DNA of 64,000 nucleotides from a virus (IMGVR_UViG_3300048580_000526:1-64000), one strand, 5' to 3'; positions 1 to 48,400 are shown, numbered from the stretch's first letter. Program-made: numbers and translations. The notes: generated from the letters alone by a model not told the origin.

Positions 1-11
1 AAATTTTTTCA

Positions 12-40
12 TTGACTTTTGTATAATTTTCAGGTACCAT
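12..40 (+). promoter_or_regulatory. sigma70-type early promoter of nadE
   Basis: TTGACT(12-17)-17 bp-TACCAT(35-40). Confidence 0.6.
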
Positions 41-111
41 AATCATTGAATGGTGGATGAAAGTCACACCATCAAAATAAATTTAACCCATTTTTTAGTG
101 AGGTAACAATT

Positions 112-1794
112 ATGAAAAATTCCCTAAAAATCGCAACAGTTCAGATTAACCCAAAAGTAGGTGATCTTATGGGTAATATGGAGAAAATTCTCGCAGCCTA
201 TAATCAAGCAGCTTTGAATGGCGCAGAATTGGTAGTCACCAGCGAATGCTCCCTAACAGGATACCCATTGGAAGATTTGACCCGCAATAAAGATTTTCTC
301 GAAGACGTTGGAACCACTTTGAACCTACTCCAAACCAAAATCATGGATGGGGTGGGGTTGATTATCGGTTCACCATTATTTGATAAAGAAAAAAATAAAA
401 TTTATAATGCCGCCATCCTAATGGAGAAAAATACTATCCAGTGTGCTGCTAAATTTGAACTACCAAACTATGGGGTATTCGATGAAAAAAGAAACTTCGA
501 TAGTAACGATTTAACCAATGTCAAGCCACTAACCTTCAAAGGGTTTAAACTCGGTGTGTTGATCTGCGAAGATACTTGGTTCAATCGTGTTTCCAATACC
601 CTAAAAGAAAATGGGGCACAGATTCTAATCTCCATTAATGGGTCACCTTTTGAACGAGATAAACAACGAATTCGCTACCAAGTCGTCAAAGATCGTGTGG
701 AAGAAACTGGTCTAACCTGCGTCTATGTTAACCAAATTGGTGGACAAGATGAACTGGTCTTTGATGGTAGTTCTTTCATCGTCAATAAAAATACCAATAT
801 CGTTTGGCAAGGTGAACGGTTCAAAGAAGAAATCAAAATTCACGATTTCAACTTAGTCAGTGATAATAACTTTGCTATTATGGGAACGCCTTGGGTGAAA
901 AATGAAGACAGGCTTGCTGAAATCTATAATGCCCTCGTTCTCGGGACAAGGGATTATTTCAACAAGACTGGCGTTTTTAATGGGTGCGTACTTGGGCTTT
1001 CAGGGGGCATCGACTCTGCGTTGGTGGCTACCATCGCGGCAGATGCAGTCGGGGCTGATAAACTCCTTTGTGTCAGATTGCCTTCCCAATTCTCGTCCCA
1101 ACACTCCCTCGATGATGCAGAAGAATTGGCTAACAATCTCGGTGCAAAATTGAAAACAGTTAATATCCAAAAATCTGTTGATGCTCTTATGGATGATGAG
1201 GTGTTGATTAGGGCGTTTAATGATGCAGGGAAAAATTCTTTTGATGTTACAGAAGAAAATGTTCAAGCTCGGGTTAGAATGATCAAATTAATGGCGTTTT
1301 CAAACAAATTGGGACTAATGCTCCTAAGCACTTCAAATCGTTCTGAAGGGCTTTGTGGATATGGTACTCTCTATGGTGACGTTTCCGGTGGGTGGAATCC
1401 GTTAAAGGATTTGTTCAAAACCCTTGTTTTTGAAATCTGCAGATGGAGGAATAATAATTTCACCGATATTTGTTTGAATAAAAAACTAAATGTTATTCCA
1501 ATGAATATCATCACCAAACCACCAAGTGCTGAATTGCGTCCTGACCAGAAAGATACCGATAGTCTCCCTGATTATGACACTCTTGATTATATTTTGGGGC
1601 AATTGGTAGATTTGGAACAACCAAAAGAATTGGTTGTCACAGATAAAATTCCATTAGCATTGGTTGAAAAAATTGGGAGGATGGTGTTCAACGCTGAATA
1701 CAAACGTCGCCAAAGTCCTCCTGGTGTGAAAATCAGTGGAAAACTTTTAAACAAAGATCGCAGATACCCAATCATTAATGGGTGGAGGATTTAA
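112..1794 (+). CDS. nadE: Glutamine-dependent NAD+ synthetase (nitrilase-like glutaminase + synthetase domains)
   Basis: Glutaminase triad context SECSLTGY / KFELPNYGVFDEKR / ICEDTW; synthetase motifs LGLSGGIDS, ENVQARVR, PPSAELRPDQKD, EYKRRQSPPG. Confidence 0.96.
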   Translation: MKNSLKIATVQINPKVGDLMGNMEKILAAYNQAALNGAELVVTSECSLTGYPLEDLTRNKDFLEDVGTTLNLLQTKIMDGVGLIIGSPLFDKEKNKIYNAAILMEKNTIQCAAKFELPNYGVFDEKRNFDSNDLTNVKPLTFKGFKLGVLICEDTWFNRVSNTLKENGAQILISINGSPFERDKQRIRYQVVKDRVEETGLTCVYVNQIGGQDELVFDGSSFIVNKNTNIVWQGERFKEEIKIHDFNLVSDNNFAIMGTPWVKNEDRLAEIYNALVLGTRDYFNKTGVFNGCVLGLSGGIDSALVATIAADAVGADKLLCVRLPSQFSSQHSLDDAEELANNLGAKLKTVNIQKSVDALMDDEVLIRAFNDAGKNSFDVTEENVQARVRMIKLMAFSNKLGLMLLSTSNRSEGLCGYGTLYGDVSGGWNPLKDLFKTLVFEICRWRNNNFTDICLNKKLNVIPMNIITKPPSAELRPDQKDTDSLPDYDTLDYILGQLVDLEQPKELVVTDKIPLALVEKIGRMVFNAEYKRRQSPPGVKISGKLLNKDRRYPIINGWRI

Positions 1795-2135
1795 GTTCCA
1801 AAAGGATATTCAGGATGTTCTGGTAAATCGCCTTGACCTGTTTGTATAATAACACGCAGGTCATGGCGGTATTTGGTCCATTCTGGAGGTATTGGAAAAC
1901 CTGCTTCAAGACAACGCAATAGTGTTATGTCACTTTTAGCAAGCGATTCTTTAGCCTCTGTTACCAAATGTTCAATCTGTTGTTCTTTTGAAAGAACCAT
2001 ATTTGGTATTAAAACACCATTTTCCCATATATCACCAATAGTAGCTTTATCATTTTGCACAAACATCTTTGGCACAGTAGCATAATTTGCAACACTAATA
2101 ACCATATTTTGTTCATCAACTATCACATATCTCAT
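1791..2135 (-). CDS. Tail fibre assembly/chaperone-like small protein (late gene)
   Basis: C-terminal SDITLLRCLE..PPEWTKYRHDLR..LPEHPEYP resembles phage tail-assembly chaperones; start moved to ATG 2135 from AAGGAG spacing; late box at 2156-2163. Confidence 0.6.
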   Translation of the reverse strand: MRYVIVDEQNMVISVANYATVPKMFVQNDKATIGDIWENGVLIPNMVLSKEQQIEHLVTEAKESLAKSDITLLRCLEAGFPIPPEWTKYRHDLRVIIQTGQGDLPEHPEYPFGT

Positions 2136-2205
2136 AACCATCTCCTTTTTCTTTTTATTTATCATTTTTAAAATTATAAAAAGTGTGGAGTTTTAAATAA
2201 ATTAG

Positions 2206-2234
2206 TTGACTTTATATCATTTTTCCTGTATATT
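2206..2234 (+). promoter_or_regulatory. sigma70-type early promoter of pncB
   Basis: TTGACT(2206-2211)-17 bp-TATATT(2229-2234). Confidence 0.7.
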
Positions 2235-2306
2235 GATATTATGAATTCCCATATGGGAGTTACATAAAAAATTAAATTTAACCCATATTAAGTGAGGTAA
2301 AATATC

Positions 2307-3653
2307 ATGACCGATTTCACAACCCAGATTCGCCATCAAGGCACAGATTTCATTGTTCGTTCACTACTTGACATCGATTTTTATAAGCTAACAATGTGCC
2401 AATTCATTTGGAAAAATTATCGAGGGACTGAAGTGACTTTCAAGCTTATCAATCGTGATAAGCATATTCCTCTTGCCCGTATCATCCCTGAACACAAACT
2501 TCGTGAACAGCTTGACCATGTTCGGACGCTTCGTATGCGTAAAACCGACCTATACTACCTTCGTGGTATGGACCTATATGGTAAGAATATGTTCTCCGAT
2601 GAATATTTGGAATTTTTGAGCAATGTTCATCTTGGCGATTATGACCTTCGCAAGACTCCCGATGGTGAACAGTATATTCTAACCTTCAAAGGTCCATGGG
2701 AAATTGTGACGTTTTGGGAAACCATTGCGTTGGCGATCATCTCTGAATTGTTCTATCGTGAACTATTGTCCCACATGAATGACACTGAAATTAGTGTAAT
2801 TTATGCCAATGCTACCAAAAAGCTTTATGACAAATTGGTAGCGATTAAAAAGTTTGCACCTAAAGCCAAGGTCGCAGATTTTGGGCAGCGTCGTCGTCAC
2901 AGTTTCCTTTGGCAACAACAGGCTATCAAAATGGCTAAAGAAATTCTTGGTGACCAATTCGTAGGTACTTCAAATACCTACTTCGCCTTCAATCAGGATT
3001 TGGTACCAATTGGGACAAATGCCCATGAATTGGTCTGCACAATCGTTGCATTGGAAAAGGACGATTCCAAAAAAGTTCAGGCACAGTATAAGGTATTGAC
3101 TCAGTGGGAAGAAATGTATGGGGAAGGTCTTCGGGTCATGCTTCCAGACACTTATGGGTCTGAACAGTTCTTCCGAAATATGCCAGAAGAATTTGCCAAA
3201 AAAATTGCCACGACTTGGAAGGGACAACGCCAAGACTCTGGTGATCCTGCAACCGAAGCCAGAAATTATATGGCTTGGTTGTCCAAATTTGGGGTTGACC
3301 CAAAGGGTAAAGTGAACATTTTCTCAGATGGTCTTGATACTGGCTCTATCGTGTCATTGACAGAACAGTTCTCAGGTGAAATCATTACCCCATTTGGTTG
3401 GGGGACGAAATTAACCAATGATTTTGAGGGTTGTATCCCAAATGGTGATAGAGTTGTACCAAATATGGGTGTGACCTATGATATGTTGTTCCGGCCATTT
3501 TCAATGGTAGTCAAGGTCTATGAAGTTGATGGTGAACCTGCAGTTAAATTGTCCAATAACTACAATAAAGCCACAGGTACACCAGAAGCGATTGCCCGCT
3601 ATATCAAAATCTTTGGTGAAGGGGGCATGTCAACCCAAAAAACTGAAGTTTAA
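2307..3653 (+). CDS. pncB: Nicotinate phosphoribosyltransferase
   Basis: SLLDIDFYKLTM, DFGQRRRHS, GTNAHE (phospho-His motif), RQDSGDP, FSDGLD, FGWGTKLTND, VKLSNN; PncB-type rather than NadV/Nampt-type (no DSYKxSH). Confidence 0.93.
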   Translation: MTDFTTQIRHQGTDFIVRSLLDIDFYKLTMCQFIWKNYRGTEVTFKLINRDKHIPLARIIPEHKLREQLDHVRTLRMRKTDLYYLRGMDLYGKNMFSDEYLEFLSNVHLGDYDLRKTPDGEQYILTFKGPWEIVTFWETIALAIISELFYRELLSHMNDTEISVIYANATKKLYDKLVAIKKFAPKAKVADFGQRRRHSFLWQQQAIKMAKEILGDQFVGTSNTYFAFNQDLVPIGTNAHELVCTIVALEKDDSKKVQAQYKVLTQWEEMYGEGLRVMLPDTYGSEQFFRNMPEEFAKKIATTWKGQRQDSGDPATEARNYMAWLSKFGVDPKGKVNIFSDGLDTGSIVSLTEQFSGEIITPFGWGTKLTNDFEGCIPNGDRVVPNMGVTYDMLFRPFSMVVKVYEVDGEPAVKLSNNYNKATGTPEAIARYIKIFGEGGMSTQKTEV

Positions 3654-3656
3654 TAT

Positions 3657-3685
3657 TTGACTTTGGCATTTGGATAAGGTAGTAT
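3657..3685 (+). promoter_or_regulatory. sigma70-type promoter of a ~100-nt stand-alone transcript
   Basis: TTGACT(3657-3662)-17 bp-TAGTAT(3680-3685). Confidence 0.6.
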
Positions 3686-3690
3686 AAAGA

Positions 3691-3789
3691 ATGATTTGAA
3701 AGCATTTAAGATTAATAAAGATTAGGAGGTGATTAAATTCACGTAACTTGCTTTCAAAAACAAAAAGCTACCCATTGGGTGGCTTTTTT
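3691..3789 (+). ncRNA. Candidate small RNA with an AGGAGGUGAU-containing loop
   Basis: Own promoter and terminator; 10-bp stem TTTGAAAGCA(3695-3704)/TGCTTTCAAA(3749-3758); no ORF of meaningful length. Confidence 0.5.
3762..3789 (+). terminator. Rho-independent terminator
   Basis: AAAAAGCTACCC-att-GGGTGGCTTTTTT. Confidence 0.85.
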
Positions 3790-3790
3790 G

Positions 3791-3818
3791 TTGACAAGAT
3801 TTTGGGTTATGGTATAAT
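3791..3818 (+). promoter_or_regulatory. Consensus sigma70 promoter of the adenylyltransferase
   Basis: TTGACA-16 bp-TATAAT with TGn extended -10. Confidence 0.85.
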
Positions 3819-3876
3819 AAATTGTAAAAGTTAGCTATTGGCAATTTTTATGAAAATTTTAAAGGAGGATAAGTCA

Positions 3877-4398
3877 ATGAAAAAAGTTGGACTTGCGATT
3901 ATGAGAACACAGCCCCTATCAAAAGGGCACACCCGCATTATTTCCCGAATGATTGAAGATTGTGAAACCGTCATTCTCGGGCTTGGTAGTGCAGATAAAC
4001 ATGGAACCGAAGATAATCCCTACACCATCGAAGACAGAATGGAAATGGCGACAAACGTTTATGGAAAGCGTATCAAAATTGTCCCGTTGAAGGATTTGGG
4101 GTTGACTTCAGTAACGAACCAGTGGGTTGAATATTGTGTGAGTAAAATCACCAACCTTGGAATGCCAGAACCCACAGATTATTACACCGGTAGTATGGCT
4201 GATTCTGTCTATTATAGGGGATATTTTCCTGAAAAAAATCTTCATATTATTGAACGAACTGAATCGTTAATTCCACCTGCGACTGATTTACGAACCTTTT
4301 TATCGTTACGAAATGATGGATGGAAGGTTTGGGTACCAGAGGTTAACTGGGAAATTGTGGAAAGTCGTTATCCCGAACATCTTCGAGTGAAAGGTTAA
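3877..4398 (+). CDS. NadM-family nicotinate/nicotinamide mononucleotide adenylyltransferase
   Basis: MRTQPLSKGH (variant of RFQPxHxGH), GLGSA..TEDNPYTIEDRMEM, PATDLR (SxTxIR-like); start at 3877 after AAGGAGG. Confidence 0.8.
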   Translation: MKKVGLAIMRTQPLSKGHTRIISRMIEDCETVILGLGSADKHGTEDNPYTIEDRMEMATNVYGKRIKIVPLKDLGLTSVTNQWVEYCVSKITNLGMPEPTDYYTGSMADSVYYRGYFPEKNLHIIERTESLIPPATDLRTFLSLRNDGWKVWVPEVNWEIVESRYPEHLRVKG

Positions 4399-4425
4399 AA
4401 AATAGCCCCTTTAAGGGGCTATTTT
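4399..4425. terminator. Bidirectional intrinsic terminator
   Basis: AAAATAGCCCCT-tta-AGGGGCTATTTT between convergent genes. Confidence 0.9.
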
Positions 4426-4429
4426 CATA

Positions 4430-7400
4430 TTATCTTTTCAAAGGTTTCATATCAACTGAACCTTTCTTTGGAATTGGATTTGGTTTATCACTTTCAATAT
4501 CCACATCTGGTTCACTGGTCGAATGGTCTTTATCAAATTCTGGATCTGCATCACCCCAACCTGAATTTATACCACCATGTTCACCAACAGGTGTAGTCAA
4601 AATTTCTTTAACATGTTTTGCAGCTGCTTGTCCATGCGTCCATCCATCCCAAACATTTTTTGGATTTGATGCTTGTGGGATTTTTAATTCCATACCTGGT
4701 TTGATCATGTGTGGATTTGTCAATTCTGGATTTGCTGCAACCAATTGTTCTGCTGTTACATGATAATGTTGTGCAATTTTACCAATTTGATCACCTGATC
4801 TAACCACATAATCTGTTTGATATTGTGGGGCGGCGGCGTTGTTTTCACCGTTACCACTATCTGCTGGTGGGGCATCCCTTCCAGAATCTGGTGGTAAATC
4901 ATTGTCATAATTTTTAACTATACCATCTGTATTTTCACCACCATTTGCATGATAATTAATATCACCATCAGTTGGTTTATGAACATAATCTTCTGGTTTA
5001 TCAACTGGTTTGACACTATAATCTTCTGATTCTTCTGGTTTGAAAGTATCACTATCACCATCACCAATATTTGTATCAATTGTTGGGACACTTGCGCCAC
5101 CCCAAATTTGACTGATTCCATTGACTATTTCATGTCCTGCCCATCCGAATAATGCACCAATCAATGCACCAATAATCAATTCTTTGAAAAGTTTGGCTGT
5201 ATCCCTTTCCCCATTATAATATCTCCAACATCCTTTTATACAAGCACCCAAAACAGCAGTCATTGGTGGGGTGAGCATACCACCAGACGCAAATCCAGCA
5301 AGCATCACAATTATACCAACACCAAGACCTTCCAAAATTTTTTCTTTATTATTTTTAATTTTATCAATTAATTGTTTGAAAATTTTACCATCACCTTGTG
5401 ATAAATTTTGTCCTAATTTATCTTCAACATGAGCACATAAATCTTTAATATTACTTGGTGTTCCATTCACACCATCTGTTTCTGGTGCTGGTGGTGGCGC
5501 AGGAGTTGCTTCTGGTTTATCTCCCTTATCTTTTTCACCTGTTGGTTTATCACCTGTTGGCGGATTTGTTGGTGGGTCGTTTGGTGGGTCATCGTTTCCA
5601 CCACCACCTGCTGCTGGTTTTGGCGCAGGGGTTGCTTCTGATTTGTCACCTTTATCTTTTTCACCTGTTGGTTTATCACCTGTTGGTGGATTTGTTGGTG
5701 GGTCATCGTTTCCACCACCATTACCACCACCAGTTCCACTGTTTACATTTCTTCCTTTATAAACATCATCACCATATACTTGTCCACCTCCGTTTCCACC
5801 TCCGTTTCCACCTCCGTTTCCACCTCCGTTTCCACCTCCGTTTCCGCTTCCACCACCATAAATATTAATATTATTAACATTATTAGCAGATGCTACGTTT
5901 TGATTATTGGAATCAGCTTCAGCTTTAATTTCTGTATTAGCAGACACTGTTTTTTCATAATCAACATTTCCTTTTTTAGTGAAACTGATAAGATTACCAA
6001 CAATTTTATTGACAACTTCTGGAGGTAAATTCTGTCCAGAATTTTTAGCTACTGCTTTATTTTTTTGTTTGCCTTTAGGCATTTCTGTAAATTCTGCATC
6101 TATAATATCATTAACACCTTTGTTTAACAAAGGTGTTTTACTTGTTTTACTTCTTTTACGCCCTTTAAATTTATGAAAATTATTACCTTTTTCATCAGTA
6201 GTTGTTTCATCAGTATCTTCAACATCAGTACCACTATGAGCACCAACTTGTTGATTTTTATTTCGAGCTTTAATTTGTGCTGCAGTCGCAGGGGGTGGTG
6301 CTTCCATAACCAATGATTCATTAATAATATTCATAAATTTTCTTATTGAATGATTTGTTGTAGATTCACAAGCAATGGTTTTCTTATATTCATCAACACT
6401 TTCACCAACTGCAGATTTAACTGCTGTTTTGTTCTTTGCAGCATCATTAGAAGCTTTCTTTTTCAAATTCAAATTACCTTTGCTATCAACAGTTAAATAA
6501 TTGTCAACAGCAAACGAGAATACTCTAAACGATTCTGGATTATTATCATTGGCGAATTTCTTTATTTCTTTATTATATGTTGCATTATAATCTTCAATAA
6601 TTTCTTTTTTAAGGTCTTTTCTATCCTTACCATTAAAAAATTTTGGGAAATTTGAATATGCTATTTTATATTTAGTATCATATTTGATGCCATTTTTTGT
6701 TAATATTTTATCAACAGATAATGGGGCGAAAAATCCACAAAGAACCCTATAAATAGATGTTGCAGACTTTGATTTTAATTTATCAATGGCTTTAACGACA
6801 ACAGCCTTTGATGGAATTTTAACATTAGGAGCTGACATTTCTGGTTTTTCTTTTTTCTTTTCTTCTGGTTCTTCAAATAATATTCTATTATATTCCCTAT
6901 AAATAGATTCATTTTTTGTTGAAGTAGCCAATGATGCTAATTTTGTAAATGCTTTTTTCAACACACCAAATAAATTAATAAATGATGATAAAGCTTTCAA
7001 CCCCTTCTTTCCTTGAGTTTTGACAATATTATACATTGCTTCAATTTTTTTAACAAGACCAGAATCACCCAATACTTCTTTAGCTTTATTTTTAATATCA
7101 TCAATAGAATCTGAAACAGCTTTAACAGCATTTTTAGTCATATCAGCCACTTTCGCTGCACCAGCTTTTATAGTATCAATAATACCTTCATCTAATCTCA
7201 TTCCAGCATTTTGACATTTTATGGCAATTCTTCTGGCTTCTTTTAATCCATGGCGTTGAGCTATTATAGGCAACACAGCATTAATGAATTCTGGAAATAT
7301 ATTTCTATCCCAATCTTCCAAAAACACTCTTGTGTTTTTATCAAGAACTCTATATTGATGTTCTGTTATAAAAGATTTGCCGCATATAAAAGTGGTGTTT

Positions 7401-7456
7401 TCCAAAATTTTACGATGGGTTTGTGGTTTAGATATTAAAAGCTCAGTGTATCTCAT
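4430..7456 (-). CDS. 1008-aa late protein with low-complexity linker, hydrophobic glycine-zipper helices and a C-terminal LysM domain
   Basis: LysM YVVRSGDQIGKIAQHYHVTAEQLVAANPELTNPHMIKPGMELKIP; helices GLGVGIIVMLAGFASGG and LIIGALIGALFGWAG; late box at 7487-7494. Confidence 0.8.
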   Translation of the reverse strand: MRYTELLISKPQTHRKILENTTFICGKSFITEHQYRVLDKNTRVFLEDWDRNIFPEFINAVLPIIAQRHGLKEARRIAIKCQNAGMRLDEGIIDTIKAGAAKVADMTKNAVKAVSDSIDDIKNKAKEVLGDSGLVKKIEAMYNIVKTQGKKGLKALSSFINLFGVLKKAFTKLASLATSTKNESIYREYNRILFEEPEEKKKEKPEMSAPNVKIPSKAVVVKAIDKLKSKSATSIYRVLCGFFAPLSVDKILTKNGIKYDTKYKIAYSNFPKFFNGKDRKDLKKEIIEDYNATYNKEIKKFANDNNPESFRVFSFAVDNYLTVDSKGNLNLKKKASNDAAKNKTAVKSAVGESVDEYKKTIACESTTNHSIRKFMNIINESLVMEAPPPATAAQIKARNKNQQVGAHSGTDVEDTDETTTDEKGNNFHKFKGRKRSKTSKTPLLNKGVNDIIDAEFTEMPKGKQKNKAVAKNSGQNLPPEVVNKIVGNLISFTKKGNVDYEKTVSANTEIKAEADSNNQNVASANNVNNINIYGGGSGNGGGNGGGNGGGNGGGNGGGQVYGDDVYKGRNVNSGTGGGNGGGNDDPPTNPPTGDKPTGEKDKGDKSEATPAPKPAAGGGGNDDPPNDPPTNPPTGDKPTGEKDKGDKPEATPAPPPAPETDGVNGTPSNIKDLCAHVEDKLGQNLSQGDGKIFKQLIDKIKNNKEKILEGLGVGIIVMLAGFASGGMLTPPMTAVLGACIKGCWRYYNGERDTAKLFKELIIGALIGALFGWAGHEIVNGISQIWGGASVPTIDTNIGDGDSDTFKPEESEDYSVKPVDKPEDYVHKPTDGDINYHANGGENTDGIVKNYDNDLPPDSGRDAPPADSGNGENNAAAPQYQTDYVVRSGDQIGKIAQHYHVTAEQLVAANPELTNPHMIKPGMELKIPQASNPKNVWDGWTHGQAAAKHVKEILTTPVGEHGGINSGWGDADPEFDKDHSTSEPDVDIESDKPNPIPKKGSVDMKPLKR
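5784..5843. repeat. 5 x 12-bp perfect tandem repeat CCACCTCCGTTT (encodes NGGG)
   Basis: Read directly; an adjacent imperfect duplication at ~5495-5720 encodes DPPTNPPTGDKPTGEKDKGDK twice. Confidence 0.95.
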
Positions 7457-7576
7457 GGTAATGCTCCAAAAATTAGATTTATAAGTTATTTATCTTTTTA
7501 TTAAAAAAAAATGGATAAAATATTATCTTTACAATCTACAATATCATGGTATCATAAATTATAACATTGGAGATGG

Positions 7577-7933
7577 ATGATGAAAAAGAAATTAAAGACA
7601 CAATTGGCTGAATGTGCAGAATCGTTGGAATATCTTCATCGGTGGGATATGAAAAAACGTTGTGCCCCAACTGCAGACCAAATCCTAACAGGAATGGTAG
7701 ACTCTTATGATGGGCTTTCTGTGGATGATCAAAACATCATCGGAAGGGATATTGTGACAGAAATTGATCCCAGTGATGTTCTGCTAAAGTTCAAGGTGGA
7801 ACGGGTGGTGAATTTTTTCAAGTCATCTTTTGTACCTGAATTGCAATATTTTTATATGGTGAAGTTTTTGAAAGAAGTTCCAATTGCAAAAAAATATGAT
7901 TTTGTGGTGGAATATATGAATGTTTTCAAATAG
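7577..7933 (+). CDS. Hypothetical early protein
   Basis: ORF with GGAG RBS and upstream TTTACA-16-TATCAT promoter-like site. Confidence 0.7.
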   Translation: MMKKKLKTQLAECAESLEYLHRWDMKKRCAPTADQILTGMVDSYDGLSVDDQNIIGRDIVTEIDPSDVLLKFKVERVVNFFKSSFVPELQYFYMVKFLKEVPIAKKYDFVVEYMNVFK

Positions 7934-7945
7934 TTATTTTTTCAC

Positions 7946-7973
7946 TTGACATAAAATTAATTCCTGCTATAAT
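7946..7973 (+). promoter_or_regulatory. Consensus sigma70 promoter of the RNA ligase-Nudix operon
   Basis: TTGACA-16 bp-TATAAT with TGc extended -10. Confidence 0.85.
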
Positions 7974-8001
7974 GGGGTGGTATTTAGAAAGGACCACTAT
8001 C

Positions 8002-8631
8002 ATGCATCGTGTAAAATATCAAAGAACATACCATTTTCCATGGTCGCAAGGTTGCATGGGTGATGATAAGATGTTGTCTTCCACCAAATCTTTTGAAGGT
8101 GAAGAAATCGTTATCTTGGAAAAAATGGACGGCGAAAACTCTTCGTTGTATCGTGAAGGTTATCATGCTCGGTCCCTTGATAGTCATGGGCATCCTTGGC
8201 AGTCTTGGCTCCAAAATTTCCACGCTGGGTTGAGGTTGGATATTCCCGAAGGGTTTAGAATCTGCGGCGAAAACCTTTATGCAGAACATTCAATCAGGTA
8301 TGATAATTTGGAATCGTTCTTCATGGGCTTTAGTATGTGGAATGATAAAAATGAATGTTTGTCGTTCGATGATACTTTGGAATGGTTCAAACTGCTAAAT
8401 ATTGTTCATGTTCCAGTGTTGTGGCGTGGAATGTGGGATGAAAAATTTGTCAAAAATTTTTATAAAACGATGGACTTGGAAAAACAAGAAGGATTTGTGG
8501 TAAGAGTCACACGTTCATTTGATTTTGATGAATTTTCGTCTGTTGTAGGGAAGTGGGTCAGGATTGGCCACTGCACTTCAGATCGCCACTGGAGTAAAAA
8601 TTGGAAACCAAATAAAATGAGGGACAGTTAA
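8002..8631 (+). CDS. ATP-dependent RNA ligase family protein (adenylyltransferase domain only)
   Basis: KYQRTYHFPWS, motif I EKMDGEN, GENLYA, QEGFVVR, KWVR; the ATG at 7972 overlaps the -10 box, so 8002 is preferred. Confidence 0.88.
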   Translation: MHRVKYQRTYHFPWSQGCMGDDKMLSSTKSFEGEEIVILEKMDGENSSLYREGYHARSLDSHGHPWQSWLQNFHAGLRLDIPEGFRICGENLYAEHSIRYDNLESFFMGFSMWNDKNECLSFDDTLEWFKLLNIVHVPVLWRGMWDEKFVKNFYKTMDLEKQEGFVVRVTRSFDFDEFSSVVGKWVRIGHCTSDRHWSKNWKPNKMRDS

Positions 8632-9056
8632 TGAAGGATAAATTACAACAATATGGGGCATTGCCTTTCTCAATCGTGGAAGGTGTACCCCATATTGCCC
8701 TCATCACTTCCAAAACAACCCATCGGTGGATTATCCCAAAAGGTCATCCAGAAATTGGAATGAAAAAATTTCACGTCGCAAAAAATGAAGCTTGGGAAGA
8801 AGCAGGGTTAATTGGGAAGATGAAACAAGACCCATTCTTGAAAGTAGATACCATCAAAATCAAAAAAGGTATTGAAATCCCAACAGAATTGACTGTTTTT
8901 TTGATGAAAATTAAAGAATTTAAAGATGTTTGGCCAGAACAAGATGAAAGAGAACGTTGCTTCGTTCCAGCGATTGAAGCAATGAAAATGGTTTCAGATG
9001 ATGCGATGGCTAAAGTGATTGAACGTTTCTTGAAAAAATTTCCAAAGGAGAAATGA
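8631..9056 (+). CDS. Nudix hydrolase (Ap6A/diphosphoinositol-polyphosphate-like subfamily)
   Basis: LITSK..RWIIPKGHPE..AKNEAWEEAG Nudix box; WPEQDERER. Confidence 0.88.
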   Translation: MKDKLQQYGALPFSIVEGVPHIALITSKTTHRWIIPKGHPEIGMKKFHVAKNEAWEEAGLIGKMKQDPFLKVDTIKIKKGIEIPTELTVFLMKIKEFKDVWPEQDERERCFVPAIEAMKMVSDDAMAKVIERFLKKFPKEK

Positions 9057-41600: not shown

Positions 41601-42482
41601 TACAGTGGTACAGCATGGGTTCCATTGACTGGCACGACTGTTGATGAAGATGTTGTTTATGCTAATGGATTGTTCTTCATTAGAACATTTGATGGTTCAA
41701 AAGCTGTTCCTAATTACTTTGAACAAGTTGATAACGTTTATGGTAATGTTGTGTTTGATTGGAAAAATAAAAAATTCTGGAAATGTGACCCTATCACTAA
41801 CCCATTATTGCCTTGGACACAAGCTGCAGATGGAGCATATGAATATAATGTTGGGCGTGTTAATTTGGATTACCAATGGAAACATTATGCACCAAGAGAT
41901 CAACGAATTGACCCAGCAATTACAAATATTATTGATTTGTACGTATTGACTACAGAATATAATAGGTCATTGCGTAATTGGATAGCTACAGGGACATTGA
42001 CAACTGATAAACCACTACCACCAACAATTAATGAACTTCAAAGTTCTTTTACAGAATTTGAAGATTTCAAGATGGTATCAGACCAATTAATTTGGAAGCC
42101 AGTTAGATATAAATTATTATTTGGTAATGCTGCAGATGACAATTTGAAGGCTATAATTAAAGTAGTGAAAACTAATAGCACAACAATGTCTGATGGTGAA
42201 ATTAAGAGTGCAGTTATTACTGCGATAAATAATTACTTTAGTTTAGTGAATTGGGATTTTGGTGAAACTTTTTACTTTACAGACATGGCTGCATATATCC
42301 ATCAACAGATGGCTACTATCATTGGTTCTATTGTTTTAGTACCATTAAATGCAGAAGCAAAGTTTGGAAATTTATTCCAAATTAAATGTGAATCTGATGA
42401 ACTTTTTATAAGTTGTGCAGATGTTACAAACGTGACAATTGAGACTAATTTTAATAATTCAACATTAAGGATTGGGAAATAA
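38700..42482 (+). CDS. Baseplate wedge protein (T4 gp6-like)
   Basis: SYDFNTIR, ENFMDTAER.DSILRLA..YSPKR, TQNRMVSGEDY, NWDFGETFYF; CBM5/12-like insert WQSNTVYQQGEFVLYNGKTWRA. Confidence 0.88.
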   Translation: MAQATRQNELLAAEVWETIYQSFSSINFASYDFNTIRTSMVNYIRANYPEDYNDWIESSEFIFILDLLAYLGEQLAFRFDLNVRENFMDTAERKDSILRLARMLSYSPKRNYPASGLLKIEQITTTESLVDSNDRDLSNRVISWNDPANADWFEQWVIVMNAIFTNTNPFGRPVNQGTILGIQTELYTMNNMPFTIPTMSFSADIDGTGMNFEIVNPNFTDGEYFYEVPPNPVNSFGLLYQNDSLGNNSNNTGFFFYFKEGNLQKEDYYLQNPTENRVLDINTTGINEPDVWFHEITDNGLFIQEWKNVPTLFGENIIYNSIAATVRNIYTVTTREDEQISLRFADGRYGSIPQGFYRLWYRTSNGLVYRIKAQDIQRQEVSMRYYNSRNELNTVTFTFSLKDTVSNSQPAETTEEIRVRAPRVYYTQNRMVSGEDYNLFPQRSNVAVKVKAVNRTYSGHSRYIDINDPTGTYQNTNVFSNDGIIYKAREDTYKNISRSTNLTPTQIVIDELQPLLVTTEMKNFLFEQLASQFILTANNTPNMPGTPNAIFWVPITWTASDSTIYNHTGIFSTSVSQGTGGNNADYITEGAMIKFASAGWVKVESIVNYGNEFPNNDRTVAGEVVLSAIVKTGDTVLQIKPAFDTTLVQVEISSFETYIRNSNTFAIRYDIPTKTWKAIDGNHINLTNDFNLSTAGDVLNQNNDSSWLVYVEYSPDSWNITARGMIYVFESVKDTRFFYVNNYKVTDLTTGLAKRDYIKIVSTNKRPTSNPMVWQSNTVYQQGEFVLYNGKTWRATVANTALNTIPQTGSTSWVEVPVSSFGEDLYFKVYDSFIYNDGHVETRRVKIDFYDSQDDGLPDDPESFEKIVMNDFFNGDVQLSERFRYAFWETYTETDGYLYKRPNLNVRQLPNLESGNIYYYSTAATNKITSITSYANISTPTLTGAAIGDLYMIYFDIDDNNSALIWRYSGTAWVPLTGTTVDEDVVYANGLFFIRTFDGSKAVPNYFEQVDNVYGNVVFDWKNKKFWKCDPITNPLLPWTQAADGAYEYNVGRVNLDYQWKHYAPRDQRIDPAITNIIDLYVLTTEYNRSLRNWIATGTLTTDKPLPPTINELQSSFTEFEDFKMVSDQLIWKPVRYKLLFGNAADDNLKAIIKVVKTNSTTMSDGEIKSAVITAINNYFSLVNWDFGETFYFTDMAAYIHQQMATIIGSIVLVPLNAEAKFGNLFQIKCESDELFISCADVTNVTIETNFNNSTLRIGK

Positions 42483-45400
42483 TGGCAAATAACGAACAAC
42501 TTTTTATATACGCAGACATAATTCAAGTACCAGATAAAAGAAAAATGATTAAACAACTTCCAGGGGTTGTTCAAACACAAACATTGCAAAATTTCTTTTC
42601 TGCTACTGTGGATCATTTATTTCAACCAGTTCAAAGTGAACGTGTCGCAGGATATATTGGTCAAAAGCCATCATATTATGACCCATCCAAAGATTTTTAT
42701 GTTCCAGAATTATCTCAAGAACGTTCAATTTATCAATTGGAACCATGTGCAACCACAAAAAATGGTAATAGCATCACCAATGCAATTTTCTTCGCAGATT
42801 TATTACAAGCATTGCGTTCTGAAGGTGCTAATATAACCAACCAAAATCGTTTGTTTGAGCAAGATTATTATTCTTGGTGTCCACCTATCAATTTGGATAT
42901 GCTTATCAACTACTCCCAATACTATTGGCTTGAAAATGGTCCAGAACCAATTTTAGTTAAAACAGCCACTGATATTGATACACAATTGGTTGGTAAGACA
43001 GCACCAGATGCAGCTGACTTGACTTTTGGTGATTCAGGTTCTGTAAAAATCACTTCTGGTATGAGAATAATATTATTAAACGACTCAAATCCAGCTTATA
43101 ATGGAAAAACTATATCTATTGAAGGCGTTGGGAAAAGTATTTTTATCGTTGAATTTAATGAAACAGACCTAAATTCTACACCATGGGATTTATTCCCTTG
43201 GGATAGGTTTGATTGGGATTTGAGTACTTTGACAAGTTCTGATTATATCATCATGGAACGAGGCTGTAAGGATACAAATTCTTGGGCAAGAAACAATCAC
43301 TGGTATCATAAAGACGTTCTTTTGGCATCAAATACTTCATTGTTTACTAACATTAATAAACAAGCCAGTAGACCTATTATTTGTTTTGAACGCAACTTGG
43401 AACTTTATAATTATGGGGATTTTAGAAGAAGTTCTGTGGACCTTATTGATGTTGATTCACAATCTATGGACCCATTTAATAATTTCCACCCACCACAAGG
43501 GGAACGTTGGGTATTATTACAGGTTGATGGTACGTTGCAATTTATTAATGAAAACAATGGGATATCATACCAAGAACAAATTAGAACATTAAAAGCACAA
43601 TATCCGGAACAACCAGAAAAAGTTCAAATTATTAAAAATGGTAGTACGATTTTATTTACTGCTATTATTGATAGCGATGTTAAAAACAACAAACCATATT
43701 TGGTAAAAATCGACAATCCAGTTTCAACAAGCAGTGTTAATTCTTGGGATTCTGAACCATTGGATATTGATGTATGGGAAGAATCAGACCCAGACATTAG
43801 CTTATCATATTCTGAAATAATAACTGGATTCTTGCGTTTTACACCTGTCACTGACAGTCAAGATGGAACAGCTGGACCAAACATTGGTGATATTATTAAA
43901 ATAAAATTTGGTGAATATCAAGGGAAAGAGATGTGGTTTGATGGGCATAATTGGATTATCGCTCAAGAGAAGAAAGACGTTAACCAAGAACCATTATTCA
44001 CCCTTTATGATGCTAACCCAAATGGTAATGTTGGGGTAAGATTGGATGATGAAACCCGTTACCCAGGAAGCTCATTCAAGGGAAATAAAATTTTTGGGTT
44101 CTTGTTGAACACAGATAATAGAACTGTAACAGATCAATATATTGGTAAAAAATTAACCTATAATGAATGGGGCGAAATAAAGTATCAAGATTTCTTGGAT
44201 ATAGTAACTGACAACGATTTGGTTAATACTCGTTATACCTATACAAAATCAAAATACAATAACCAACCAATATCAGGTTATTATTTCTGGAAAATTAAAT
44301 CAGATGAATTTTATGGTAATAATTGGTGGACTGTTAACGAAACATCAAAACAATTTATCGTTGATAATTTTATAGTAACATCTGACCAACCAATAATTAA
44401 TAAACAAACATTCATTGGTGATGGGGTAACTTCATCGTTTATTTTGAATCATAATGTTCCAACAAAAGATTATTTGAGGGTCGTGGTAAAAGATTCTACC
44501 ACCAATACAAATATATTTTATAAAATGGATGATAATAGTAATAAGGTTGAATTTTATGACATTCCATCTGTTGGACAAGTTATAACTTTTTATCACTATA
44601 GTAAACCAAAATCTAATTTAGAATTTATTATCAGTCAAGAACCAGATGTTAATTTACTATTAAATAAACAAGATAATTTGATGGTTTATATTAATGGAAA
44701 AGTCGCAACACCAGGTGAACATTATTTATTAGTTAACCAAAGAGAATTTGATGCCACAACACCTATTAGTAAAATAGCAATATTACAAACAACAGATTCA
44801 ACAAACATTAGTATTATGAAAAATACTAACATTACAGTTAAATCATATTCTCCTCTCACACCTGATTTGGACATTAATGGGCACTATGAAATACCAAATA
44901 ACTTGGCAATCAATCCAGATTGGAGTGAAGTATCTTATATAACATCAGACCAATTCTTACCACAATTTAGTGCTATTATTAAGAACCAACCAAATTTTTC
45001 TGGTATTGAATATGAAGCCAATAATTGGAGAGATACTATACAGGATCGTTCACTTGGTAGGACAATTATCCAACATACATCCCCATTATTGCGCCTTATG
45101 ATAAGCAATGCCAATGATGATTTGGATTATATGAAGTCCAGTCGTTTTGTGGAAACAGAATACACCAGATTTAAAAATAAATTCTTACAAAAATTGACTA
45201 AATTTTGGATTAAAGATTTTATTCATGTAGACATAACATCAACCACAGAAGCACAAAGAAAAATTGTAAAGAAAGCTGCCATTGATAGTATTATGAAAGA
45301 AATCAACCTTGGAAAAGTTTATAAGGTATCACCATTCTCATATTCCAATATGGCTGGTATGAATTGGTTTATCCCCCCAACTCCAAGTTTTCTTGGATTA

Positions 45401-48400
45401 TTCCCAACATTCAAACCAGAAAAATATGTTGATGATACTTACCTAACTCCTATTGAAGTTATCCAATGCCATGATGGTTCATTGTTGAAAACTTTTGGTG
45501 ATTATCGTGATGAAATTATTTTGGAATTGGAAACATTAATTTATGAATCAATCCCATTAAAATTTAGAGATGGAAATCCACATAATGCATTCCAATACAA
45601 ACGTTATTTCCCAGGAAAATTCAGAACACAACTTTCGGAATATACAAGGGAAGAAATAAACACCATTTCACAACCTATGTTTGAACGTTGGGTATCTGAA
45701 AACCAACAATCATATCGTCCACATACAGGATTTGATTATACAAATTTGTGGACTTATAACTGGTCCACTTCTACAGATAATTTGGGAAATCCAGTACCGG
45801 GACATTGGAGGGGAATCTTCAATTGGTTCTTTGATACAGATAGACCTCATACTCATCCATGGGAAATGTTAGGTTTCAGCGAAAGCCCTGACTGGTGGGA
45901 AACATATTATGGACCAGTCCCATATACAAGAGGGAACATGAACCTTTGGGAAGATTTGGAAAAAGGTATTATTCGTGAAGGTTCGAGGGCTGGTATTGAT
46001 CCATATTATGCAAGACCTGGGCTATTGAATATATTACCAGTTGATGAATATGGACACTTGATAGACCCATGGACAGCAGGTATGTTGAGAAGAAAACCAA
46101 ATTATTCAGAAGCAGAAGCAGATTGGGTATATGGTGATGGTTCACCAGTTGAAACAAAATGGAAAAAAACTTCACAATTCCCGTTTGCAATGTCACAAAT
46201 TGGATATTTGATTAAACCAGCACGTTGGATGGAACAATGCTGGAACCCATTAGACGATGAATTTATTTATGACCAAAAACAATTAATCAGAAAGTCAACA
46301 TTGAATAGAAGTTCTCATTCAAAATTCACAGTTCATGGTGAAACTTATAATGGGCAATTGGTTATAAATTATGGTTATCAACAATGGATAACTGATCGCT
46401 TATTATCAAACAACAAATCACCTGGAAGCAATTTCGGTGATGTTATCAGGGCACTTGGTGTTCAACTTGGTTATAAGGTTGGTGGGTTCTGTAATCCATA
46501 TACATTCTATGCTGATAACATTTTGGGTTCATTGCCAGCAGAAAATATTAATCAATTTTTATACAGAAGCCCATCTGTCAGGGAAGAAATCTACAGTGGT
46601 GTAATCATTGAATGGACAGGACGTTCTTATAAAGTTTCTGGTTATGATTCCATAAATCCAGTGTTCAAGATCATCCCAAGCGACGTTTTTGGTAAGAAAG
46701 TATCACATGACGTTGGTGGGACTGTTACCATCCAACCACCAGAATGGCAACAAGGGATTCTTTATAATGTTGGCGACACAGTAATGTTTAACTACACATA
46801 TTATAAGGCTATTAAAACAAATCAATCCACTACTTATTTCGACCCTACAGTTTGGGTGGAGACAACATTGAGTGCATCATTAAGTGGCACCACTGTTTTT
46901 GAATATTTGGAACCAATTTATGACAGACGTATTGAGACAATTCCATATGGTTATGAGTTTAGTTCAAGACAAGATACTTTTGATTTCTTGGTATCTTATC
47001 AACGCTATTTAATATCTCGTGGATGGGCATTTGATGATATTGATGAAACCACCACCAACGAAAAAATTGATTGGATATTATCAGGTAGATTGTTTGTTCA
47101 ATGGTCATTGGAAAGAGATAAGAACGTTGGGACATTTATTAAATTATCCCCATATGCAATTCATGCCCAATACAAATCCTCCTTTGGCTCTATCCAATCA
47201 ATTGAGCAAGTTCTCAATGGTGTGTATAGCTTGTTGGATGAAAATGGCTTTATTATTGAACCTCATGATATAATTTCTATGCGTTCTGATGACGTTATGG
47301 ATATCAATTTATTATTAAATGATCGTTCATTATCATCTGTTAGATTGTTCGTTAGTGAAATTGAGCATGTTATATTATTTGATAACGTCACAGTGTTCAA
47401 TGATTTGATATTTGACCCATTATTTAACCAACGCCAAGTTCGTTTGAAGGTCGATGGCACCAGAACACTTGCATGGAATGGAAGAATTGATGCCCCTGGT
47501 TATATCATTAGTGATAATTTGATTTATCCAAACTTTGAAAAAACCGCCAAAGATTTCTTGCGACTTTATGGCATTGAGGACGTTGTTGATAACGTTGAAT
47601 TACAAAACCGTGCTCGTCACCTTATTGGATACCAAGAGCGTCCATATTTACAAAATCTTCTTTTGAGTCCAACCACAAATTTCCAATTCTACCAAGGGAT
47701 GATTCATGCGAAGGGTTCTCGTGGAAGTATGACCAAATTATTCAGAAGCGAATATGTTTCAGAATCAAGGGACTTCAAAATATTTGAAGAATGGGCGTTC
47801 AAGTTGGGCGACTACGGCGCAATTGACACCAACCCAACCATGGAGTTTTATTTAGACCCATTGAACGGAAAACAAATCACTGAAGACCCACAATTGGTTA
47901 CCTTTAATGAATTACAAAACAGTTCATCCTTGCCAGCAGAACCAAGCGACCTCGATGATCGTTATGATAATATTATTTCACTTTATGACTATTTTGAAGA
48001 TGGTAAATTGGTAACACCAGATAAACGCTGGTTGCGCCGTCCAAATGGTATTGGTAATCTATGGGAAAAACGAGACTTTGGGTTCTATGCATCAGATATT
48101 CCAAACGCTGGTCCAATAAAATTAGATGAAGTTGATTATTTCATAACCAATACTACAGAATTATTGAAATTCTCCACAAATTTACGTGTTGATAAAAACA
48201 AGTCATTGACAGATGGTGAAAGATTGTGGATATATGACACTGGTTGTGGTGATTGGAGTGTTTATCGTGTTACAGGTGTTACATCAAATAGTGCAAGTGT
48301 AACATCTGTGAGTCTGAATGCATCAATTGACCAAGATTCATTGTGTGGTTTAGACGTTTCCACAGTCACATTAATTCCTAATCAAAAAATGGATTTAACA

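Follow-up and report, generated by a model that had tools for sequence, protein, structure and literature searches.

The presence of NAD genes in a giant lake-water phage raises the question of which route to NAD+ they encode and what purpose that route serves during infection. The three genes, nadE, pncB and a nadM-type gene, are found at positions 112–4398 of the analysed stretch of 64,000 nucleotides (hereafter the window), on a 90-kb contig of a T4-like jumbo phage that represents about 23% of the phage genome and whose end coincides with window position 1. We consider it probable that the region is a phage-borne module for deamidated (Preiss-Handler) NAD+ synthesis, with a Shine-Dalgarno-masking leader on nadE and pncB. 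The module would serve to maintain or restore NAD+ in the infected cell, most plausibly as a response to defences that deplete it. The initial annotation described the genes as clustered and co-oriented. All three are intact and on the plus strand, but they are not contiguous: a minus-strand ORF (1791–2138) lies between nadE and pncB, and a promoter/terminator unit (3657–3790) separates pncB from nadM. The intervening ORF encodes a tail-fibre-assembly-like protein of about 115 aa (PHROG 4912, E 5e-6; SD and ATG present, no Pfam match) and is not a pathway member. Downstream of nadM, a two-way terminator hairpin of 12 bp (4399–4425, unstranded) is located between nadM and a converging LysM gene.

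The enzyme identities assigned to the trio were borne out by profile and structure comparisons. NadE (112–1794, plus strand, 560 aa) is a glutamine-dependent NAD+ synthetase that exceeds the NCBIfam NF010588 cut-off of 479 with 637.6 bits and contains a CN_hydrolase domain (PF00795, residues 6–248) and an NAD_synthase domain (PF02540, residues 272–534). Aligned to PDB 5kha (E 1.4e-118), it was found to retain the glutaminase triad (E45/K114/C152) and the PP-loop (SGGIDS, 297–302), and the nearest structures are the NAD+ synthetases of A. baumannii, Streptomyces avermitilis and Burkholderia thailandensis. PncB (2307–3653, plus strand, 448 aa) is a nicotinate phosphoribosyltransferase by NF003704 (393.6 bits, cut-off 379) and falls marginally under the cut-off of TIGR01514 (267.0 vs 269.55); both NAPRTase domains (PF17767 and PF04095) were found, and PDB 1ybe was matched with an E-value of 1.4e-108. 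The histidine of the GTxAHE motif is the one autophosphorylated in ATP-coupled PncB enzymes; the motif is present here as GTNAHE (236–241), and its His240 is kept and invariant in 22 homologues. A preference for nicotinate over nicotinamide is predicted from family membership.

The third gene (3877–4398, plus strand) encodes a NadM/archaeal-type nicotinate/nicotinamide-mononucleotide adenylyltransferase of 173 aa that lacks a kinase domain. Its likely start is ATG 3877, preceded by a AAAGGAGGA Shine-Dalgarno, which was favoured over TTG 3838. The protein matches PDB 1f9a by sequence (E 2.9e-11), and in a Foldseek search with its AlphaFold (AF2) model (pLDDT 93) ranks 1–14 were all NMNAT/NadM chains (1f9a, E 9.2e-11, TM 0.70–0.75). 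It stays under the cut-offs of the NCBIfam NMNAT models (PRK01153, 52.4 vs 127; TIGR01527, 50.4 vs 181.2) and is placed in a subfamily of its own, comprising about 94 clusters at E <= 1e-30, which appears to be mainly phage-borne. Based on a scan with one family-specific peptide pattern, which returned two MAG contigs among 185,579 species genomes, the subfamily is provisionally considered rare in cellular genomes. Elsewhere its members are fused to NAD synthase (NadE), Nudix or NADAR domains, the NadE fusion joining two consecutive pathway steps.

The adenylyltransferase motif GRxQPxHxGH reads MRTQPLSKGH in the window protein, where Arg10 and His18 are kept and the first His of HxGH is replaced by Ser15, the sole case among 28 aligned members. 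This substitution could weaken or abolish activity, and the module might then be decaying in this phage, with the adenylyltransferase crippled, PncA and Nudix lost, and PncB and NadE relying on the host NadD. Such a reading would fit the histidine found in all 27 other aligned homologues, the length of the protein, which is among the shortest in the alignment and lacks the variable insert, and the absence of PncA together with a non-coding unit in the Nudix slot. We nevertheless judge decay improbable: nadM is an uninterrupted ORF that follows a strong SD and the best promoter of the window, and the confident model retains Arg10, His18 and the C-terminal SxTxxR motif (PATDLR, Thr136 and Arg139, with Arg139 invariant in alignment A3). 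The superfamily motif is moreover (H/T)xGH and the human NMNATs have Thr at the first position, so Ser may be tolerated.

Taken together, the enzymes are predicted to form the sequence originally proposed for them, in which PncB would convert nicotinate and PRPP to NaMN, the NadM-family enzyme would adenylylate NaMN to NaAD, and the glutamine-dependent NadE would amidate NaAD to NAD+, a well-supported assignment. The order of the last two steps could in principle be reversed, as NadM-type enzymes often prefer NMN. In a Francisella-like order, NadE would first turn NaMN into NMN, as an NMN synthetase, and NMN would then be adenylylated by the NadM-type enzyme, which would return the route to the amidated branch. 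The NadM-family enzymes of Francisella, Acinetobacter and archaea are known to favour NMN, PDB 2qjt, 2r5w and 1f9a are among the matches, and the one-domain NadE of related phages has the size of the Francisella enzyme. The window NadE, on the other hand, is of the two-domain glutamine-dependent type nearest to NAD+ synthetase structures and matches PDB 3fiu, which we take to be the Francisella NMN synthetase, much more weakly (E 3.6e-18); archaea, which are without NadD, must in addition use NadM on NaMN. The Francisella-like order thus seems quite improbable here, and the deamidated order is preferred.

The proposed route starts from nicotinate, and the initial annotation had noted that nicotinamidase (PncA) is absent from the window. 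This holds for the whole 90-kb contig, in which neither PF00857 (nicotinamidase, isochorismatase family) nor the PncA of related phages, used as tblastn query, gave a match. Also absent from the contig, itself incomplete, were Prs (PF13793, PRPS-like), PnuC (PF04973), a second NAPRTase-family gene, an NAD-dependent ligase and a Pfam-level Nudix; at about 23% of the genome, these negative searches denote absence from the module and not from the whole phage. Nicotinamide set free by NADases has no entry to the pathway unless a nicotinamidase is available, and the phage would need such an enzyme from its host or from another part of its own genome. A location upstream of nadE, suggested earlier, is not what related phages indicate, as their nicotinamidase is found downstream of nadM. 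A possible accessory Nudix hydrolase of 141 aa is encoded at 8631–9056 (plus strand; PHROG 10313, E 3.6e-14; Pfam NUDIX 20.5 bits, slightly under cut-off), co-transcribed with an RNA ligase and with a perfect sigma70 promoter at 7946–7973. It gave no tblastn match to the Nudix of the related modules, to which it is not orthologous.

A survey for co-occurrence of the three genes, as had been suggested, revealed a conserved five-gene order, nadE-pncB-nudix-nadM-pncA, on some 20 different IMG/VR contigs, many of them 137–465 kb long, and in phage Phosso. These relatives were retrieved with an alignment query; a search with the single PncB protein returned none. The window trio is a trimmed copy of this jumbo-phage module, without its Nudix and nicotinamidase and with a non-coding unit in the Nudix slot. 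The NadE slot is occupied by either a one-domain or a two-domain form (the latter in the window and in contigs L030, L041 and L044), which argues for selection on function and not on one gene lineage. Neither Phosso nor either of two complete 460-kb relatives has a PRPS-like gene or any gene of the NAPRTase family besides the module PncB; among the families searched, the module is therefore their only recognisable route to NAD+.

The same relatives bear on whether the block could be host DNA mis-assembled onto the phage, a reading prompted by the position of the trio at the extreme contig end and by the GC3 of its genes (0.36–0.40), which lies above that of the structural genes (0.15–0.32). 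It is scarcely credible: the best cellular relatives of the trio proteins share just 48–61% identity, the phage tail-fibre-assembly-like ORF is interleaved in the trio, and both a related 296-kb phage contig and the complete 460-kb phage genomes have the module between the genes for the gp23-type major capsid protein and the portal.

Whether the system is new was assessed against known phage and bacterial pathways. The trio had been put forward as a candidate third type of NAD reconstitution system, a place already taken by NARP3 (PnuC and NadR; PMC13464706, 2026). NARP1 (Adps and Namat) and NARP3 resemble the trio as phage-encoded NAD+ restoration, but their chemistry (ADPR-PP ligation, and import and conversion of nicotinamide riboside, respectively) is unrelated; a PRPS-like Adps was absent from the incomplete contig and, for NARP3, PnuC was likewise absent from the contig and the adenylyltransferase has no kinase domain. 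NARP2 (Nampt/NadV and Nmnat; Vibrio phage KVP40 NadV/NatV), a proven counter to NAD+-depleting defence, is similar in combining a phosphoribosyltransferase with a NadM-type adenylyltransferase, often together with a Nudix. It uses nicotinamide directly via NMN with no NadE or PncA, whereas the trio requires a PncB phosphoribosyltransferase and NadE, and the sole PF04095 gene in the contig is PncB-type and not Nampt/NadV. Complete nicotinamide salvage (PncA-PncB-NadD/M-NadE) is not encoded in the 90-kb contig, while PncA is present in the relatives. Bacterial pncA-pncB-nadE operons and the Francisella NadE*/NadM route share the enzyme families and the overall chemistry; in contrast to these, the trio is phage-borne and has no cellular match above 61% identity.

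The possibility that the arrangement was unreported did not hold either. Jumbo phages with complete Preiss-Handler pathways, e.g. Kuafu_71 with pncB-nadD-nadE, were described by Li et al. (2024, Microbiome) and proposed, on bioinformatic grounds alone, to make NAD+ from nicotinate (PMC11662467). Those clusters share PncB, the NaMN adenylyltransferase step and NadE with the present locus. They differ in that their adenylyltransferase is NadD and not of the NadM/archaeal family, in their gut and not freshwater habitat, and in that a fixed order with Nudix and PncA in a wider module and a conserved leader RNA are found here. The closest isolated-phage homologues of all three proteins (39–44% identity) are from Sinorhizobium phage Phosso and Agrobacterium phage Atu_ph07, both annotated with these genes. 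Phosso has the order nadE-x-pncB-...-MutT-NMNAT-isochorismatase (‘hydrolase’), with a one-domain NadE and, unlike the window phage, both Nudix and PncA; in Atu_ph07, nadE is about 85 kb away from the other NAD genes. A megablast search of window positions 1–9000 against 50,697 phage records gave no match. Phage Preiss-Handler gene sets were thus known before (reported 2024); what is new is the definition of the five-gene module, the adenylyltransferase subfamily, and a covarying leader RNA on nadE and pncB.

The NAD genes would be transcribed from host-type (early) promoters. Of the sigma70 promoters claimed for each gene, that of nadM (3791–3818, plus strand) is a perfect TTGACA-16-TG-TATAAT, one of two perfect sites in the 64-kb window. 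Those of nadE (12–40, plus strand; TTGACT-17-TACCAT, 9/12) and pncB (2206–2234, plus strand; TTGACT-17-TATATT, 10/12) are weaker matches, and promoter-like sites across the region were not in excess (37 observed vs 30.2 +/- 5.3 shuffled). The latter two are homologous to each other (TTGACT-17-TAnnnT), aligning base for base, and relatives have TTGAC-N17/18-TATAA(A/G)TA at an equal distance to the leader hairpin as in nadE.

Each of these two promoters is followed by a copy of the leader RNA. Copy 1 (46–111, plus strand; covariance model R1, 50.4 bits at 50–109) folds into hairpins H1 (46–75) and H2 (86–104), the 3' strand of H2 carrying the SD GAGG (100–103). Copy 2 (2238–2306, plus strand), which is outside the R1 seed alignment, was recovered with 30.1 bits (E 6.5e-5) and has H1 at 2241–2265, H2 at 2281–2298 and the SD GAGG at 2294–2297. 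In H2, the Shine-Dalgarno sequence is paired with an ACCCAU anti-SD. The copies carry one identical 13-mer; a chance repeat was rejected, since the alignment extends over the entire cassette of promoter and leader, which also conforms to the covariance model. All 25 R1 matches (E <= 1) in 823 kb are on the sense strand and directly 5' of nadE, pncB, pncA or a replacement PRTase, with one leader in each of the two complete 460-kb relatives; the Phosso leader matches R1 weakly (16 bits). The leader alignment has 95.6% paired cells, with compensatory change in 11 of the 14 pairs and a covariation score of 0.46 against 0.17 for shuffled alignments (0/500 shuffles as high), a signal that partly reflects two clades; for H1, an independent test with MAFFT alone found 93.3% paired. 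In each hairpin a U.G wobble is almost invariant, which argues for function at the RNA rather than the DNA level, and a DNA operator for NrtR, NiaR or NadR was rejected since the wobbles are kept and all copies are sense-strand. In Rfam, the leader has no match: NAD+-I and NAD+-II were absent at E <= 10 (window 1–140; L041 3300–3480), and none occurred at E <= 1 in window 1–9000; permissive thresholds gave only noise. R1 was not found in a Micavibrio MAG or in 151 genomes sampled from its class, which is weak evidence as the search had no cellular positive control.

On nadE and pncB, H2 would bury the ribosome-binding site, and its pairing of SD with anti-SD suggests that a ligand or a protein probably controls translation. 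A tentative reading, which we regard as rather unlikely, is that the RBS is buried while NAD+ is plentiful and freed when a SIR2/TIR defence drains NAD+, making the leader a virus-encoded sensor of immune NAD+ depletion with the enzymes translated only under attack. Close to an even chance is given to the leader not sensing a metabolite but serving as the operator of an RNA-binding protein (one of the module enzymes or a translational repressor of the phage), or as a constitutive structure for SD masking or processing. A metabolite sensor would be expected to have larger hairpins, and the two found here are short and similar to each other (N-A-U / G-U-N' with a bulged purine), fitting two sites of a dimeric protein; their apical parts are variable and unpaired conserved bases are few. 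Against a protein operator, the motif occurs only on NAD genes, and no conserved small RNA-binding gene accompanies the module in the loci inspected. The NAD+-I riboswitch (nadA motif) consists of two similar tandem bulged stem-loops, and the tandem design of the leader with an RBS-occluding second domain resembles it, which also speaks against the operator. RBS sequestration is likewise the mechanism proposed for NAD+-II (pnuC motif), as an OFF switch (PMC7749635). Both riboswitches are 5' leaders of NAD-pathway genes like the present RNA, but the leader hairpins are much smaller, the conserved bases differ and neither Rfam model matches.

Bacteria very commonly defend themselves against phages by depleting NAD+, and experiments have proven three phage pathways that rebuild it; the deamidated phage route is so far known from catalogues only. 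For the module described here a counter-defence role is plausible, and its NaMN and NaAD intermediates might, as initially suggested, escape the NADases. The trio might instead be a general auxiliary metabolic set that raises NAD+ for the redox reactions, nucleotide synthesis and NAD-consuming enzymes of the phage in nutrient-poor lake hosts, a real possibility if not a probable one. Li et al. (2024) interpret such clusters as general auxiliary metabolism (PMC11662467), NAD-salvage islands are interpreted as AMGs in a freshwater jumbo-phage paper, and jumbo phage PA5oct raises expression of the host pncA-pncB1-nadE operon in ordinary infection; the window phage, furthermore, is without PncA, the link from NADase products to the pathway. 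The relatives, however, retain both PncA, which would turn nicotinamide into nicotinate, and Nudix, which probably splits ADP-ribose, thus keeping recyclers of both NADase products, and with NARP1–3 it is experimentally proven that phage NAD synthesis defeats SIR2/TIR defences. The two purposes are not mutually exclusive.

Sensing of NAD+ or a breakdown product would make the leader the first phage regulator with a direct link to the metabolite lost to immune attack, as well as a small new building block for controlling genes in response to NAD; if it senses neither, the locus would simply be one more case of a class described before. In a single metatranscriptome, three 151-nt contigs were found, two of them in pncB, which are not counted as expression because DNA carry-over is possible. 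The same phage recurs in lake metagenomes of several studies.

Three intact genes, all on the + strand, were found at 112–4398 of the window. The first (112–1794) encodes a two-domain, glutamine-dependent NadE, which scored 637.6 bits against NF010588 (cut-off 479), had 5kha as its best structure match (E 1.4e-118) and carries the E45/K114/C152 triad and the SGGIDS loop. The second (2307–3653) encodes a PncB (NF003704, 393.6 bits vs. a cut-off of 379; best structure match 1ybe, E 1.4e-108) in which the histidine of the GTNAHE motif is kept. The third, ending at 4398, likely starts at the ATG at 3877, 5' of which lies a strong Shine-Dalgarno sequence, and encodes a NadM-like adenylyltransferase of 173 aa. 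This protein scored far under the NCBIfam cut-offs; its nearest solved relatives by sequence are archaeal NMN adenylyltransferases (1f9a, E 2.9e-11), and the top Foldseek ranks of its predicted model (pLDDT 93) are exclusively NMNAT/NadM chains. The initial annotation of clustered, co-oriented nadE, pncB and NadM-type genes is confirmed. The three genes are non-contiguous: a tail-fibre-assembly-like ORF on the − strand separates nadE from pncB, and a short promoter-to-terminator unit separates pncB from nadM.

The gene content supports the proposed Preiss-Handler pathway as judged from sequence. A Francisella-like order of the steps remains a minor rival, since a preference for NaMN or NMN is unreadable from sequence. 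The further proposal that this constitutes an unreported third type of phage NAD+ reconstitution found no support in the literature: in addition to NARP1 and NARP2, defined by Osterman et al., NARP3 (2026) comprises PnuC plus NadR (PMC13464706), and Li et al. 2024 described 174 "NAD-jumbo phages" in which the salvage or the Preiss-Handler pathway is complete, along with a pncB-nadD-nadE cluster (PMC11662467). No paper testing the deamidated phage route against defence was found. What the present analysis adds is a conserved five-gene module, a phage-rich NadM-like subfamily and, above all, an uncatalogued leader RNA.

A survey of phages for co-occurrence of pncB, nadM and nadE, as suggested initially, was carried out by scanning IMG/VR with PncB and adenylyltransferase alignments, followed by tblastn on the retrieved loci. 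An ordered set of nadE, pncB, a Nudix gene, the NadM-like gene and a gene for an isochorismatase-family, PncA-like protein (Pfam) recurred on some 20 different viral contigs, many of them 137–465 kb long. The NadE slot is filled by a one-domain enzyme in most contigs and by the two-domain form in the window and three related loci (L030, L041, L044), so that the function of the slot is conserved while its occupant has been replaced. The module PncB is the sole NAPRTase-family gene of the isolated jumbo phage Phosso and of two relatives with complete 460-kb genomes, and no PRPS-like gene was found in these three genomes. Homologues of the module Nudix and PncA were absent from the 90-kb contig of the window's phage (23% of its genome), whose copy of the module is trimmed. 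A Nudix gene unrelated to that of the module lies 4 kb downstream of the window's NAD genes, its start overlapped by the stop of an RNA ligase gene (PF09414; promoter and gene pair at 7946–9056, + strand). In the related locus L035, the NAD module is followed by a PF09414 RNA ligase gene as well as one resembling nucleoside 2-deoxyribosyltransferase genes, and Phosso also has the latter; these genes may belong to an extended NAD island. Directly 5' of the module on a 137-kb viral contig (L007, 3939–8724) is a complete PrkA/DUF444 (YeaH)/SpoVR triad, an unusual phage cargo.

For the NadM-like ADENYLYLTRANSFERASE, a profile run against 1.84 billion representatives retrieved 94 clusters at E <= 1e-30; in a single pattern scan covering 185,579 species genomes, the subfamily signature was present on just two MAG contigs. 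Fusions to an N-terminal Nudix domain, an NADAR domain or a C-terminal NAD synthase occur in some members. The last of these fusions ties the adenylyltransferase to NadE as the adjacent pathway step, and the N-terminal NADAR domain of one member (P0288) points to a link with ADP-ribose metabolism or reversal of ADP-ribosylation. In the HxGH motif, the window's protein has Ser in place of the first His, which the other 27 aligned homologues keep. As the superfamily motif tolerates Thr at this position, adenylyltransferase activity is plausible but uncertain.

The IMG/VR virus contig comprises 89,963 bases, and its first 64 kb make up the window; position 1 is the contig end, and anything 5' of that position thus lies outside the data. 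CheckV completeness of 23% implies a genome near 390 kb. The contig encodes a portal, a baseplate hub, SbcCD and a single ORF of 5,022 aa (42482–57550, + strand) downstream of a 1,260-aa ORF. Host DNA mis-assembled onto a phage was considered as a source of the NAD genes and dismissed, because a 296-kb relative, with a portal 52% identical to that of the window, carries the NAD set between a gp23-type capsid gene and the portal gene. The nearest cellular homologues of the window's NAD proteins reach just 48–61% identity, and of isolated phages, the jumbo phages Atu_ph07 and Phosso carry the closest relatives of all three. In the 296-kb relative, the homologous portal (L009, 16754–19756, − strand) is a 1,000-aa ORF matching the window's 587-aa portal as two blocks ~1.2 kb apart, which suggests an intein or other insertion. 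Several independent studies of lake-water metagenomes yielded identical short contigs of the window's phage, and one further lake metagenome a variant strain. At 4432–4583, the 3' end of a LysM gene, the variant contig has 15 other letters in place of 150 bases; several loose ends at 5400–7500 suggest that this gene differs among strains. One metatranscriptome held three short contigs of the phage, two of them within pncB, which is only a weak hint of expression.

Each NAD gene had been assigned its own sigma70 promoter. This stands for nadM, whose extended promoter matches the consensus perfectly; the window has just one other such site (7946, + strand), which drives the RNA-ligase/Nudix pair. 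The nadE and pncB promoters are weaker and homologous to each other (TTGACT-17-TAnnnT), and the count of promoter-like sites over the whole region showed no excess over shuffled sequence. Between pncB and nadM, a candidate small RNA unit (3657–3790, + strand) has a promoter-like site (TTGACT-17-TAGTAT) and, 3' of it, ~100 nt of strongly folding sequence (-31.1 kcal/mol, z -4.7), ending in a terminator hairpin and U run. It occupies the slot of the Nudix gene in the relatives' module and had no credible match in Rfam.

The promoter-leader cassettes of nadE and pncB can be aligned with each other and have in common an exact 13-mer absent elsewhere in the window. When 21 leaders, taken from the window, from Phosso and from relatives, were folded singly, two tandem hairpins recurred nearly always. 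In the first, H1, a one-base purine bulge sits above the lower stem and is followed by N-N', A-U and U.G pairs below a variable top. In the second, H2, (A)CC(C/U)AU pairs with the Shine-Dalgarno GU(G/A)AGG, with the same bulge/A-U/U.G geometry. In a plain MAFFT alignment, H1 was 93.3% paired, with compensatory changes in 6 of 8 pairs and a covariation score of 0.54 vs. 0.18 in shuffles. A covariance model, R1, was built from 11 seeds excluding the window's pncB leader, which nevertheless scored 30.1 bits. Across 823 kb of loci and the window, R1 gave 25 matches (E <= 1), all on the sense strand and directly 5' of nadE, pncB, pncA or the gene of a putative divergent phosphoribosyltransferase that replaces PncB in L030 and L047. 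The R1 alignment, which is fitted to the model and so biased towards its structure, had 95.6% of cells paired and 11 of 14 pairs covarying, and slid controls collapsed. The anti-SD/SD pair is C-G or U-A by clade, without exception.

The two complete 460-kb genomes hold exactly one copy of the leader motif each, and no copy turned up among 151 bacterial genomes sampled; no match was found in Rfam 15 and no published description in the literature search. The U.G wobbles and the bias for the sense strand argue against a DNA operator and for a leader acting as RNA. With tandem bulged hairpins, the second masking the ribosome-binding site, the leader is alike in principle to the NAD+-I and NAD+-II riboswitches. 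Its hairpins are small, however, and the probability of a protein operator is no lower. Further, weakly scoring copies of the leader occur immediately 5' of the PncA-like gene in L043 (9794–9856, 16.9 bits) and L035 (9735–9798, 15.8 bits), and some phages may thus gate three module genes separately. In L030 (5684–6985) and L047 (3318–4493), the leader precedes a protein of 391–433 aa in the position of PncB, which matches QRPTase_N only weakly and is possibly a divergent phosphoribosyltransferase of type II.
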